Below, piece by piece: positions 2,325-52,812 of a stretch of 64,000 nucleotides of DNA; within the stretch, counting starts at the first letter, position 1, and each line of letters begins with the position of its first letter. The position numbers and the translations under genes were made by a program. This DNA comes from an uncultured Verrucomicrobiae bacterium (GTDB taxonomy: Bacteria > Verrucomicrobiota > Verrucomicrobiia > Chthoniobacterales > UBA10450), in the NCBI GenBank assembly GCA_963772365.1, contig CAVYXA010000003.1, forward strand, positions 608,001 through 672,000, in the 5' to 3' direction. The notes below the pieces were generated by a model. The model did not search any database. It saw only the letters and a program-made list of their open reading frames with translations, and was not told the DNA's origin.

Positions 2325-3680
2325 ATGAACGTCGCCATCGTTGGCCGGCCGAACGTGGGTAAATCGGCGTTATTCAATCGCTTGATTGGGCGGAAAATCG
2401 CGATTGTGCACGACCAGCCGGGAATTACGCGCGATCGAATTTCCGCATCGTGCACACGCGGACCACGCCCGTTTGTCCTTTGGGATACAGGCGGCGTTCT
2501 GGGTGCCGGCCAATCTGAATTGACCGGACACGTTCGACGTGGTGTGGAGCAGGCAATCGTTGAAAGCGATTTGCTCCTCTTCGTCGTCGATGCAAAAAGC
2601 GGACTGTCACCGATTGATGAGGAGTTCGCCAGATTGCTTCGGCGTTCTGGCAAACCGATCGTGCTTGTTATCAATAAAATCGACATCGACAAACAGGAAA
2701 CGCTGGCGGCGGATTTCTCGTCCCTGGGCTTTGAACGCAGTATCGTGATCAGCGCGGAACATAATCGCGGCATCGATCGGCTAGTCGAAGTAATCGATCC
2801 ACTTTTGCCAGAGCAGGCTGGGACCGAAGATCGACAGTCGAGAATCAAAGACCAGCTGAACATTGCAATTATCGGTCGTCCGAACGTAGGGAAATCTTCC
2901 CTGGTTAACGCCATTGTAAGAAATGAGCGCGCGATCGTGAGCGAATTACCCGGGACAACGCGCGACGCCGTCGACATCATCTATGAACGCGACGGTGAGC
3001 ATTACACTTTCATCGACACCGCCGGAATTCGGAAACGTGGAAGACATTCCAGTTCGGTGGAGGTCTTCAGCGTGATGCGCGCGGAGCGAACGATCCGGAG
3101 AGCGAACCTGTGCGTTTTGATTGTCGATGTTACGACTGGCGTGACCGCGCAAGACAAGAAGATCGCCGGGCTCGTGCAGAAGTCCGGCAAGGCTGCGATT
3201 GTTGTCGTAAACAAAATTGATCTTCTCGATCAAGGACGCGGCACCAGGAAATTCGTTGACCAAATTATGACCGTTACACAAGAACGGCTTTTCTTTCTCG
3301 ACCATGCTCCGGTTCTATGGACGTCCGCATTGACCGGTGAGCATGTTCAAAAGCTTTTTCGATTGATCAAACAGGTTCAGCGTGCGGCAAAAGCGCGCAT
3401 CGGAACCGGTGTTCTCAATCGATTGCTCAGAGCAGCCGTCGATGCCAATCCTCCGCCGATGCGAAAAGGAAAACGTCTCAAGCTTTTTTATGCCGCGCAG
3501 GCGCACGGTAAAGAAGATCGACAACTGCAACCGCCCGAGTTCGTTTTGTTCGTAAACGACCCGGGATTGTTGACGCAACCTTACGAACGTTATTTGCAGG
3601 CACAGATTCGCGAAGCTGAGCCATATCCAGGCCTGCCGGTTTTTTTGACGCTACGCCCGCGTAGCGAGAAAGGAAAATAG
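2325..3680 (+). CDS. der: ribosome biogenesis GTPase Der
   Basis: Two GRPNVGKS P-loops, DTGG/DTAG, NKID; ATG at 2325. Confidence 0.95.
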   Translation: MNVAIVGRPNVGKSALFNRLIGRKIAIVHDQPGITRDRISASCTRGPRPFVLWDTGGVLGAGQSELTGHVRRGVEQAIVESDLLLFVVDAKSGLSPIDEEFARLLRRSGKPIVLVINKIDIDKQETLAADFSSLGFERSIVISAEHNRGIDRLVEVIDPLLPEQAGTEDRQSRIKDQLNIAIIGRPNVGKSSLVNAIVRNERAIVSELPGTTRDAVDIIYERDGEHYTFIDTAGIRKRGRHSSSVEVFSVMRAERTIRRANLCVLIVDVTTGVTAQDKKIAGLVQKSGKAAIVVVNKIDLLDQGRGTRKFVDQIMTVTQERLFFLDHAPVLWTSALTGEHVQKLFRLIKQVQRAAKARIGTGVLNRLLRAAVDANPPPMRKGKRLKLFYAAQAHGKEDRQLQPPEFVLFVNDPGLLTQPYERYLQAQIREAEPYPGLPVFLTLRPRSEKGK

Positions 3681-3748
3681 CTTCGCCGTCGCTGGAACTG
3701 CGGTTGCGAATCGAACATTCGGCGAGAAAATCTGTCTCAAAAACACAC

Positions 3749-4735
3749 ATGAAATCGACTCAGGAAATCACGCATGAAGTGCAAGAGCTTGGGCAATGGA
3801 TTCCCGCGGTTCGTCAACAGGTTGGCCACGTCGTCATCGGGCAGAAATATCTGATCGATCGCCTTTTGCTCGGGCTCCTCGCCAACGGGCATATCTTGCT
3901 GGAAGGCGTTCCCGGCCTGGCAAAGACCTTGGCTGTGAAGACGATGGCCGCCTGTATTCAGACCGGTTTTCAGCGCCTGCAATTTACGCCCGATCTGTTG
4001 CCAGCGGACTTAATTGGCACCCTGATTTACAATCCGCGCACCGGAGAATTTTCGACAAAGCTCGGCCCGATTTTCTCCAATCTGATTTTGGCCGACGAAA
4101 TCAATCGCGCGCCGGCGAAGGTGCAGAGCGCGTTGCTCGAAGCGATGCAGGAACGTCAGGTTACGATTGGGGAAAAAACCTATCCGCTGTCTGATCCGTT
4201 TCTGGTACTGGCGACGCAGAATCCGATTGAGCAGGAAGGCACGTATCAATTGCCGGAGGCGCAGCTCGATCGATTCATGCTGAAACTGAATATCGGCTAT
4301 CCGCAAAAAATCGAGGAACGCAAGATTCTCGATTTAATGGCCACTTCCGCGCCCGACCTGCGTGTCAATCCGGTTATTGAGCCGAAGCAAATTATCGCGT
4401 CCCGGGATGTCGTGAATCACATCTACATCGACGATCGGGTGAAGGATTACATTGTCGATGTTGTCTGGGCGACGCGAGAGCCTTCGACTTACAATTTGAA
4501 TCTCGAGGGGTTGATTCGCTACGGCGCATCGCCGCGGGCCACGATCTATCTGGCGCTGGGTGCGCGAGCCCATGCGTTTCTGAATGGCCGCGGCTACGTG
4601 ACACCGCAGGACGTGAAAAGCATCGGTCCGGATGTGTTGCGCCATCGAATCATCGTGAGCTACGAAGCCGAAGCCGAGGCGGTAACGAGCGAGACAATCA
4701 TCGAAAGGATTTTCGCCGGATTGCCGGTGCCGTGA
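3749..4735 (+). CDS. moxR: MoxR family AAA+ ATPase
   Basis: LLEGVPGLAKT, QFTPDLLPADL, LADEINRAPAKVQSALLEAM. Confidence 0.95.
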   Translation: MKSTQEITHEVQELGQWIPAVRQQVGHVVIGQKYLIDRLLLGLLANGHILLEGVPGLAKTLAVKTMAACIQTGFQRLQFTPDLLPADLIGTLIYNPRTGEFSTKLGPIFSNLILADEINRAPAKVQSALLEAMQERQVTIGEKTYPLSDPFLVLATQNPIEQEGTYQLPEAQLDRFMLKLNIGYPQKIEERKILDLMATSAPDLRVNPVIEPKQIIASRDVVNHIYIDDRVKDYIVDVVWATREPSTYNLNLEGLIRYGASPRATIYLALGARAHAFLNGRGYVTPQDVKSIGPDVLRHRIIVSYEAEAEAVTSETIIERIFAGLPVP

Positions 4736-4738
4736 GTG

Positions 4739-5239
4739 CATGCGAGCACGTCATTCCGAGCGAAGTCGAGGAATCCCGTGGCGCTGCCTGAAACGTAACT
4801 TCATGGAGTCCTTGGGCTCGGCTTTACTGCGCTCGGGGTGACAGTCTGGAGTATGCAACATCAAAATTACTTCGTTTACATTTTGACGAATGCAGATCGT
4901 CACACGGTTCTTTACATCGGTGTCACAAACAGCCTCGAACGCCGCGGTAGCGAACACTCACTCGGTCGTGGGAGCGTTTTTGCAAAGCAGTACAATGCGC
5001 ACAAGCTGATTTATTACGAAGCCTATCCCGATCCGACGACGGCAATCGCTCGAGAAAAGCAGCTGAAACGATGGCGCCGGGCCAAGAAAGAAGCCCTTAT
5101 CGCACGGACCAACCCGGAATGGAAGGATCTGGTTGAAGAAATGTACGCTGTTCGAACTAGCGGAGGTTCTCGGTAGTGCCGCGGGATCCCTCGACTCCGG
5201 TCGCTGCGGCGACCTCCGTTCGGGATGACGGCCATGCGA
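4739..5239. mobile_element. putative GIY-YIG-encoding insertion element with imperfect terminal inverted repeats and 7-bp flanking direct repeat
   Basis: CATGCGA at 4739-4745 and 5233-5239; arm gtcattccgagcgaagtcgaggaatcccg (from 4750) is inversely matched by cgggatccctcgactcc...cgttcgggatgac (5182-5229). Confidence 0.6.
4853..5176 (+). CDS. small stand-alone GIY-YIG nuclease
   Basis: YFVYIL...LYIGVTNSLERR...EH, LIYYEAY, AIAREKQLKRWRRAKKEALI...NPEWKDL. Confidence 0.9.
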   Translation: MQHQNYFVYILTNADRHTVLYIGVTNSLERRGSEHSLGRGSVFAKQYNAHKLIYYEAYPDPTTAIAREKQLKRWRRAKKEALIARTNPEWKDLVEEMYAVRTSGGSR

Positions 5240-6123
5240 CCGCCACGGCTGAAATCCTCAAGAAAATTCGCGCTCTGGAAATCAAGACTCGCGGTCTGGT
5301 GGAAGCTGCTTTCGCGGGCGATTATCACAGTGTCTTCAAGGGACGGGGAATGAACTTCTCCGACGTCCGCGAATACCAGCCGGGCGACGATATTCGGGCG
5401 ATCGATTGGAATGTCACGGCGCGGCTCGGAAATGCGTTTGTAAAGCAGTTCACCGAAGAGCGCGAGTTGACGGTCATGTTGATTGTCGATGTTAGCGCAT
5501 CGGGGAATTTCGGGAGCACGACACAATCAAAGCGCGAGCTGGCGGCTGAAGTTGCCTGTCTGCTCGCGTTCAGCGCGATCCGGAACAATGACAAAGTAGG
5601 ATTGCTCCTCTTCACGGATCACGTGGAATTGTTCATTCCGCCCAAAAAAGGGAGCTCCCACACGCTGCGGCTTATTCGCGAGATTTTGTTTTTCAAACCG
5701 CAGGGCCGCGGGACGGAGCCGGGATTGGCCCTCGATTATCTTAACAAAATTGTGACGCGTCGATCGGTCGTTTTTCTTATTTCGGATTTTCAAGCGCCGG
5801 ATTTCTCGCAAGCGCTTGCCGTAACCGGCCGCCGTCACGATTTGATTGCTGTTCATATTCATGATGAGCGCGAGAAAGTGTTGCCCAATATAGGGATCAT
5901 TACGCTGGAGGACGCAGAGACCGGCGAGCAAATCGAGCTGAACACAACTGATCGCGGCACGAGGAGTCGTTTTGCCGAGGAAGCGGAGCAGCAGGATGCG
6001 GAACTGTCGAAGTTGCTTCGACGAAACAATATCGACTCCATCGCGTTACAAACCGGCCAGGATTATCTACCTGCCTTGCGATCGTTTTTTAAACAGCGCG
6101 AACGTCGTTTAGCCATTCGATAA
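5176..6123 (+). CDS. DUF58 domain protein (MoxR-associated); first 19 codons are repeat-derived
   Basis: GDYHSVFKGRGMNFSDVREYQPGDDIRAIDWNVTAR; position after moxR. Confidence 0.9.
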   Translation: MPRDPSTPVAAATSVRDDGHATATAEILKKIRALEIKTRGLVEAAFAGDYHSVFKGRGMNFSDVREYQPGDDIRAIDWNVTARLGNAFVKQFTEERELTVMLIVDVSASGNFGSTTQSKRELAAEVACLLAFSAIRNNDKVGLLLFTDHVELFIPPKKGSSHTLRLIREILFFKPQGRGTEPGLALDYLNKIVTRRSVVFLISDFQAPDFSQALAVTGRRHDLIAVHIHDEREKVLPNIGIITLEDAETGEQIELNTTDRGTRSRFAEEAEQQDAELSKLLRRNNIDSIALQTGQDYLPALRSFFKQRERRLAIR

Positions 6124-6126
6124 GAA

Positions 6127-6642
6127 ATGAAAATTGGAATTTTAATTGCGGAAAAATTCAACGATATCGCTCCGCCGATTGATTATTCATTGGTTCCGCC
6201 GTGGTTGGTGTTCGTCGCGGTGTTCGTCGGTTTGACAGTATTGGGATTGATTGTGTGGCTGATCACACGGTCACGTAAGCAGGTCGTGCCGACCAAGTCA
6301 GCTCGTGCACATGCACTGGAACAGCTCGAGCGGATGCAGGGCGAAGTGGAACGAACGCAGCCGTATCGATTCAGCATCCATGTGTCCGACGTTCTCCGGC
6401 GTTACGTGACCGAGCAGTTTAACCTGCCCGTTACGCGTCAGACTTCCGTGGAATTTCTCTCGTCACTGGCGAATTTCTCGACATTTTCCGAAGAGGAAAA
6501 GCAGTTGCTCGAGGATTTTTTGAATCGCTGCGATCTGATCAAGTTCGCGCGTTACGAAGCCACGGCGTCGGATAGTCGGTTACTCCTGGATGAAGCGATC
6601 CGGTTTGTGAAAGGAGGCGAACTTGCAGCTGCATCTGTTTGA
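6127..6642 (+). CDS. single-pass membrane protein of moxR/bat operon
   Basis: One TM segment, LRRY...TSVEFL...CDLIKFARY pattern, operon context. Confidence 0.7.
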   Translation: MKIGILIAEKFNDIAPPIDYSLVPPWLVFVAVFVGLTVLGLIVWLITRSRKQVVPTKSARAHALEQLERMQGEVERTQPYRFSIHVSDVLRRYVTEQFNLPVTRQTSVEFLSSLANFSTFSEEEKQLLEDFLNRCDLIKFARYEATASDSRLLLDEAIRFVKGGELAAASV

Positions 6643-23867: not shown

Positions 23868-23959
23868 GTCATTCTGAGCGGAGCGGAGCGAAGTCGAAGA
23901 ATCCCGTGAAATTGCCTTCAGGTTTTGCAACGGGATCCCTCGACTCGGCTCGGGATGAC
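23868..23959. repeat. GTCA-tagged palindromic doublet, same family as the GIY-YIG element ends
   Basis: gtcattctgagcg...gcgaagtcgaagaatcccg ... cgggatccctcgactcggctcgggatgac. Confidence 0.85.
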
Positions 23960-52721: not shown

Positions 52722-52812
52722 TGTCCTGTTGAGCGAAGCGAAACATCTCCGATCATTCTCCGACCGGCACGTATGGAAATGATGTGAGATCCTTCGTTTC
52801 GCTCAGGATGAG
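52722..52812. repeat. GTCA-family palindromic doublet (divergent)
   Basis: tgtcctgttgagcgaagcgaaacatctc ... gagatccttcgtttcgctcaggatga. Confidence 0.7.

Follow-up and report, generated by a model that had tools for sequence, protein, structure and literature searches.

What is a small nuclease gene doing inside the moxR-DUF58 operon of an uncultured verrucomicrobial bacterium, and is it, or was it once, a mobile element? In the window, the 64,000-nt stretch of DNA that we analyzed, the gene lies between inverted repeats. The first-pass annotation had read it as a candidate autonomous, transposase-free element, possibly undescribed, that inserted on the DUF58 start and rebuilt it. The nuclease gene within the operon, the inverted arms, the two CATGCGA copies, and the overlap between the nuclease TAG and a downstream GTG were each found where that annotation had placed them. 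What the features mean is a separate matter, and we take it up step by step.

The genes, flanks, arms, initiation signals, and direct repeats of the locus are all on the plus strand. Upstream lies moxR, which encodes an AAA_3 ATPase according to Pfam (3704-4735) and ends with a TGA stop at 4733-4735. The left flank that follows, GTGCATGCGAGCAC (4736-4749), includes the left CATGCGA copy (4739-4745) and has a GTG directly 3′ of the moxR stop that is possibly a relic of the original DUF58 start. The left arm (4750-4781) is a hairpin module of the SRM/NTS-like kind described below, consisting of GTCAT, a 5-bp stem (ATTCC/GGAAT) with a 12-nt loop (GAGCGAAGTCGA), and then ATCCCGTGG. Together with a degenerate reverse module at 4810-4842, which is missing from most orthologous cassettes, this arm makes up a decayed 93-nt doublet (4750-4842) 5′ of the nuclease gene. 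The arms pair as inverted repeats of 32 nt (I1, 81% complementary) and 17 nt (I3, 82% complementary), and the inner degenerate arm that ends at 4842 gives a further repeat of 17 nt (I2, 82% complementary).

The nuclease open reading frame (ORF; 4838/4853-5176) encodes 112 residues from a GTG and 107 residues from the ATG at 4853, and it ends with TAG at 5174-5176. Its C-terminal tail encodes a Shine-Dalgarno-like GGAGG (5162-5166), and its stop overlaps, as TAGTG, the rebuilt GTG start codon of the DUF58 gene (5176-5178). By our reading of the window sequence, this GTG is the sole canonical in-frame DUF58 start; the frame that it opens is MPRDPSTPVAAATSVRDDGHATATAEILK. The right arm (5179-5229), a reverse module that ends ...CGTTCGGGATGAC, carries a 16-nt GC hairpin (5199-5214) as an insertion in its loop and is translated into the DUF58 N-terminal extension (PRDPSTP...SVRDD). 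The right copy of the 7-nt CATGCGA direct repeat is at 5233-5239. Right arm and flank together give the DUF58 gene (5176-6123; PF01882, E 2e-82) an N-terminal extension of 19 residues. A DUF4381 gene and then two VWA/Bat-like genes lie 3′ of DUF58.

The arms did not arise by chance, because the 26-nt core of the left arm had no match in 100 shuffles of the window and the 13-mer GTCATNNYGAGCG occurs 179 times in the host genome (G000; 3.35-Mb assembly, 90% complete) compared to twice for a backwards control. Enrichment of the hairpin in the host genome is also one of the features by which the Ssn family, introduced below, is recognized. An Rfam search of the region 4500-5500, at E values up to 1, returned no match, and promoter and terminator scans of 3500-6300 gave nothing exceeding shuffles. 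We also considered whether the arms might be a palindrome arisen by chance, a terminator, or an RNA element, and rejected each of these.

To which family does the nuclease belong? In Pfam searches, it matched GIY-YIG (PF01541, E 7.8e-16, profile positions 1-76 of 78) across residues 10-84 of the 112-residue ORF, with no second domain; apart from a sub-threshold T5orf172 match, Pfam returned nothing else, and no HUH Y1 transposase was found. NCBIfam returned no family. Single-domain GIY-YIG proteins that are flanked by hairpin repeats have been described as the Ssn family (CDD cd10448; PMC11893778; Chenal et al., 2025, Nat Commun 16:2388). According to that paper, the repeat is named NTS in Neisseria, where its consensus is CGTCATTCCCGCGMAVGCGGGAATCYRG, and SRM in general; four purified Ssn homologues cut ssDNA exclusively, on one strand and just upstream of the hairpin; and positions at the NTS ends matter for both cutting and binding (PMC11893778).

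Several comparisons place the cassette protein in this family. It matched an ORF of N. gonorrhoeae with a tblastn E value of 2e-12 (7.3 Gb searched), below the tblastn threshold of 1e-10 set for homologues in that paper (PMC11893778). With blastp, the same pair gave E 2e-21 and 44% identity over 86 residues, and hhalign gave a probability of 99.8% over 90 columns. The gonococcal ORF has five exact NTS consensus matches within 600 nt and, judging from these flanks, is presumably ssnA. Ssn proteins are single-domain GIY-YIG proteins of roughly 90-110 residues, and the cassette protein has 107. Homologues at 50-61% identity were found in Hymenobacter aerophilus, Thermonema, and Solirubrum genomes, which are cd10448-positive in Supplementary Data 4 (PMC11893778). 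All 20 of the relatives compared have the tyrosines of the GIY and YIG motifs, Arg31, and Glu68. The arms and the printed NTS also share their ends, with CGTCAT at the 5′ end and ATC-C at the 3′ end.

The published SRM search expression, taken literally, has no match in the window, and by that expression the gene is not flanked by SRMs. In the G000 genome it gave 18 matches, compared to 10-18 in simulated genomes. The expression fails on the cassette arms at the block YYVSBRH, and it matched 24 of 24 instances of the NTS consensus. In the paper's table, Chthoniobacter flavus is listed with an Ssn homologue and an SRM enrichment of just 0.96-fold, and three Bacteroidota genomes are also Ssn-positive without SRM enrichment (PMC11893778). 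Since C. flavus is Ssn-positive without enrichment, the published repeat counts are probably underestimates outside Proteobacteria.

We conclude that the locus is very probably an Ssn-family cassette, in which a GIY-YIG gene is bracketed by inverted cognate hairpins that are a verrucomicrobial variant of NTS/SRM, and that this cassette is old, vertically inherited, and accommodated by its host. The element is not of an undescribed kind, as the system is the Ssn/SRM system set out in PMC11893778. With this locus, the Ssn family described in 2025 reaches into Verrucomicrobiota, and the hairpin here has a shape that escapes the published search expression. Literature searches linking GIY-YIG proteins with MITEs, REPINs, or REP sequences retrieved no relevant paper. 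As to function, cleavage of ssDNA directed by the hairpin is the likeliest: by homology to the characterized enzymes of Neisseria and Wolbachia, the cassette protein would bind the hairpin in ssDNA only, on one strand, and would cut just 5′ of GTCAT.

How are the hairpins organized in the host genome? G000 contains 50 gene-less doublets of 72-116 nt in forward-reverse order, in which most of its scattered hairpins lie, and no reverse-forward pairs. The modules share one plan, in which GTCAT is followed by three variable bases, a constant loop of 11-12 nt, the complementary three bases, and ATC. In G000, 113 of 120 modules have all three variable stem positions complementary; with shuffled partners, the count averaged 41 and never exceeded 59. 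At least six stem versions occur. When single arms were folded as DNA, their energies were unremarkable (z −0.84, −0.35, and −0.14), so that the case for the stem rests on covariation rather than energy. The 101-nt left doublet alone stands out on DNA folding (z −2.3).

Within a doublet, the two hairpins nearly always differ in stem version (GTC/GAC may be combined with TCC/GGA, or TCT/AGA with GTT/AAC), and the doublet as a whole thus does not form a simple perfect palindrome. A crude open-frame test, made without gene calls, found 5 of the 50 G000 doublets crossed by long open frames and 6 joined to them. Elsewhere in the window, a gene-less 92-nt doublet of the cassette's hairpin family lies at 23868-23959, and there is a possible degenerate 90-nt doublet at 52723-52812.

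The modules fall into two types by their loops. Type A (loop ...AAGTCGA), to which the cassette's own arms belong, has 34 modules in G000 and is outnumbered by type B (loop ...AAGCGAA), which has 101. Type-B modules (GTCAT...GAGCGAAGCGAA) make up about 30 doublets in G000, each of roughly 90 nt. A cognate ssn for type B was not found in this 90%-complete assembly; G001 and G012 carry a paralogue that matches type B and has type-B arms. The number of type-A modules is 34 and 49 in genomes with a type-A gene, compared to 16, 2, and 2 in genomes without one. Type-B counts do not track the gene, as there are 101 modules in G000, which is without it, yet only 3 in G012, where the type-B ssn is present. 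G020, where no ssn was found, has 62 arm 13-mers, and counts of arm motifs in family genomes without a detected gene range from 7 to 62. The link between nuclease and repeat is loose. The scattered 72-116-nt doublets are most likely non-autonomous derivatives, whose spread would depend, or would once have depended, on an Ssn protein.

Does the gene travel with its arms in other genomes? A homologue was present in 20 of 41 related genomes. Among 20 closer homologues, 17 had arms on both sides, the forward one no more than 140 nt upstream and the reverse one no more than 100 nt downstream; in the other three, the arms were differently arranged (L004 and L013) or an arm with an insertion was missed by the search pattern (L021). 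A scan of species-representative genomes recovered 593 stretches encoding relatives in many phyla, with Bacteroidota, Chloroflexota, Clostridia, Alphaproteobacteria, and Patescibacteria among the groups represented and with the closest loci titled Verrucomicrobiota. When the 76 loci with enough flank were scored, a flanking inverted repeat scoring at least 14 was present at 34, across phyla, compared to 1 of 76 controls, and these cross-phylum repeats again start TGTCATYC. Nuclease and inverted arms are one recurring unit, as had been proposed.

Two further loci came to light. On plasmid AZO_p3 of Azospirillum lipoferum 4B (L164), an annotated GIY-YIG gene, 42% identical to ours, lies between sufB and sufC; this operon-internal cassette has an 82-83-nt hairpin doublet on each side. 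In the host genome, outside the window (G000:C1:376900-379260), a tandem array with a 321-nt period holds five to six small GIY-YIG genes that are nearly identical and belong to a different subfamily. A tRNA 3′ fragment ending in CCA precedes every one of these genes, and beside the array lie a tRNA, a further GIY-YIG gene, and an incomplete copy of the tRNA.

Are these units mobile? The Discussion of the paper likens the NTS-ssnA-NTS layout to an insertion sequence and draws a comparison with REP/RAYT, and the question of whether Ssn/SRM units move is raised and left unanswered (PMC11893778). Our literature search found no follow-up demonstrating mobility of Ssn units. We tentatively suggest, as a possibility, that Ssn cassettes are true mobile elements with a new mechanism. 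The GIY-YIG protein would cut hairpin-marked ssDNA at each end, joining would fall to the replication or repair machinery of the host, the doublets would be MITE-like non-autonomous offspring, and gene boundaries would be preferred, where translatable arms would let a gene regrow its start. If Ssn cassettes are mobile, the cassette between moxR and DUF58 would be an insertion fossil kept through the entire history of a bacterial family.

The opposite reading, that of a purely host-serving system that was never mobile, fits the long vertical retention, purifying selection, and operon integration seen at the moxR|DUF58 boundary. It also fits the effect on natural transformation reported for N. 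meningitidis (PMC11893778). We nonetheless find it doubtful. Relatives hold paralogous cassettes, complete with gene and both arms, at different loci (four in G010 and three in G021), and the cassette interrupts operons in unrelated bacteria, such as sufB|sufC in A. lipoferum. Doublets also vary in presence, as one doublet of G000 has no counterpart in the orthologous G001 spacer. Of three comparisons, this one alone was informative, since synteny was broken at the doublet in the other two, and the DNA identity of only 72-79% between G000 and G001 makes them too distant to fix insertion boundaries. The orthologous G001 spacer (G001:C6:158433-158645) holds instead a different element, which is GC-rich and palindromic.

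When did the cassette reach its present position? Across the 27 host loci examined at the moxR|DUF58 boundary, it is present in eight genera (G000, G010, G016, G007, G003, G013, G021, and G004). G008 has both arms but not the gene, and G002 retains only a remnant of the right arm. An empty short spacer, with an ATG near the moxR stop, is found in G015, G014, G011, G012, G006, and most genomes of other families. In the sister genome G001 (L032, 960-1500) and at a second locus of G031 (L057), the boundary is occupied by a 23S rRNA-IVS protein gene (PF05635, E 1.9e-29) that is flanked by its own inverted repeats (GGTGAGAGG.../...CACCTCTC), and other ORFs lie there in G031 and G029. The boundary seems to draw small cassettes. 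Three of the genomes are unpublished: G003, which provides one occupied site and the relic start there; G008, the source of the gene-less relic; and G014, which provides one empty site. Empty sites among relatives had been predicted, and they exist, but the exact junction TGA-GTGCATGCGACC was in no relative examined.

A tree of moxR and DUF58 unites the family in one clade, at whose base lies G008, and occupied genomes are found in all three subclades. The eight junction nucleases also form one clade (support 94/97), separate from 12 paralogues elsewhere. Among them, pS is 0.63-1.0, which is saturated, and pN is 0.10-0.31; the junction nucleases are under strong purifying selection. The arm cores of about 29 nt are nearly identical across orthologous cassettes, with adjacent spacers that are unalignable, and the orthologous arms contain a compensatory stem change (TTCC/GGAA versus TCCC/GGGA). 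The junction nuclease of G021 (L008) sits on a long branch (0.8), is altered at several positions that are conserved elsewhere, and may be decaying.

The simplest reading is one ancient insertion followed by repeated loss. The ancestor of this bacterial family would have acquired the cassette in the first DUF58 codons, with vertical inheritance under purifying selection thereafter. The boundary offers a dated series, made up of the full cassette, arms without a gene, a single-arm remnant, and the empty site, that bears on the mobility question. Recurrent gain, in which the boundary is a hot spot for repeated insertions or for recombination among relatives through the conserved flanking genes, would account for the patchy occupancy, as cassette-bearing, empty, and other states are mixed in two of the three subclades. 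It would also suit the left flank, where the distance from moxR stop to arm ranges from 8 to 31 nt and nothing is alignable, the lineage-specific short direct repeats, and the use of the same boundary by the 23S rRNA-IVS cassette (G001 and the second copy in G031) and by other ORFs (G031 and G029). We consider it unlikely. Loss by deletion can be seen directly in G008, with its gene-less relic, and in G002, with its remnant of the right arm; the junction copies are monophyletic; and 8 of 8 genomes share the same rebuilt start, frame, and arm sequence, which descent explains more easily.

Insertion on the DUF58 start, with a new start rebuilt from the translatable arm, is well supported by the same eight genomes. 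In all of them, an in-frame DUF58 start overlaps the nuclease 3′ end, in the form of TAGTG (G000 and G004), TAATG (G010 and G003), TGATG (G016), or ATGA (G007 and G013); in G021, the DUF58 ATG lies 10 nt before the nuclease stop. Translation of the right arm uses one frame throughout, RDPSTP...RDD (8 of 8). In G000, G016, and G003, a GGAGG ahead of the new start is encoded by extra C-terminal residues of the nuclease. An apparent original start is still visible beside the moxR stop, as TGA-GTG-CAT in G000, as TGATG GGT... in G003, and as TGATG-CAC at the cassette site of G001. Start rebuilding is older and more general than the first-pass annotation had supposed.

Accommodation of the cassette, under the reading of one ancient insertion, would have three parts. 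The cassette would be read within the moxR operon, presumably by co-transcription; the nuclease tail would supply a ribosome-binding site; and the overlap of the nuclease stop with the new DUF58 start would cause the right arm to be translated as an N-terminal extension. The locus offers a clean natural case, spanning eight genera, of a host that tolerates an operon-internal cassette through translational coupling and a repeat-borne start.

Do the CATGCGA copies record the insertion? The 7-nt repeat itself is real, and 32 of 2000 flank shuffles gave a repeat at least as long (p about 0.016). In the other seven orthologous cassettes, the repeats are 3-6 nt long and unrelated in sequence, and taken singly they give p values of 0.055 to 0.99. 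Fisher combination over the eight cassettes gave p 0.0085, or 0.043 without G000, which is exploratory, as the genomes are kin and the values non-independent. At the 50 gene-less doublets, flanking repeats of at least 4 nt were found at 18%, compared to 23% with shuffled partners, and are not in excess. The proposed target duplication, being neither reproduced at the doublets nor conserved in the seven orthologous cassettes, is weakly supported, and we do not accept CATGCGA as a transposition footprint.

Removal of the cassette and one CATGCGA copy yields an in-frame start, GTG-CAT-GCG-ACC..., and the 6-nt repeat AAAGCA in the unpublished G003 also gives an in-frame join by our reading of its flanks. 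Even with these joins, the 7-nt repeat, and the exploratory Fisher value in its favor, it is highly improbable that the cassette is a currently autonomous transposase-free element that inserted itself at the DUF58 start within this lineage with a 7-bp CATGCGA duplication, because the junction is occupied in eight genera by nucleases that form one clade with saturated synonymous sites, G000 holds a single gene of this nuclease subfamily, neither the doublets nor the seven orthologous cassettes repeat the pattern, and the predicted empty site was not found among relatives.

How does the cassette compare with known systems? It shares with GIY-YIG homing endonucleases of the I-TevI type the catalytic domain and the appearance of a selfish-looking small gene between or within host genes. 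Unlike them, the cassette protein has no separate DNA-binding domain and no intron or intein context, the cassette has flanking repeats of its own, and the characterized relatives use an ssDNA substrate. Having a single domain and a chromosomal operon context, it was not placed in the homing endonuclease class. The UPF0213 proteins (YhbQ-like) are also small, single-domain GIY-YIG proteins, and they include the nearest solved structures by sequence (1zg2, BH0048, E 4e-7; 1ywl, EF2693, E 0.02). They are far more distant from the cassette protein than the gonococcal Ssn (33 bits versus 68 bits), and they are not known to have a hairpin partner.

Classical IS and MITE elements were also considered and set aside: inverted ends are present, but direct repeats are not in excess at the 50 doublets. 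The IS200/IS605 'peel and paste' elements resemble the cassette in having subterminal hairpins that are recognized in ssDNA and in making no target duplication. They differ in that the cassette is without TnpA or TnpB and has two ends that are symmetric inverted repeats. The resemblance to REP/REPIN sequences with their RAYT extends to a single-copy, vertically inherited nuclease gene between inverted hairpins, to hairpins dispersed as forward-reverse doublets, and to the lack of a target-site duplication. The enzymes are different, as RAYT is an HUH Y1 protein whereas only GIY-YIG was matched here in Pfam, and by enzyme the cassette does not belong to the RAYT class. GIY-YIG chemistry is not known to involve a covalent tyrosine intermediate, and such an enzyme would therefore be unable to rejoin DNA alone.

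The SsnA/NTS-SRM system of N. meningitidis, as described (PMC11893778), has in common with the cassette a single-domain GIY-YIG protein of about 95-107 residues, with 44% identity between the cassette protein and the product of the NTS-flanked gonococcal gene. In both, the gene is bracketed by inverted hairpins that start CGTCAT and end ATC-C, and the repeats are dispersed in the genome. The hairpin itself differs, with a 5-bp stem and a 12-nt loop in the cassette compared to a 9-bp stem and a 3-nt loop in NTS. The cassette differs further from the neisserial system in being operon-internal and translationally coupled, with a right arm that has become part of the downstream protein.
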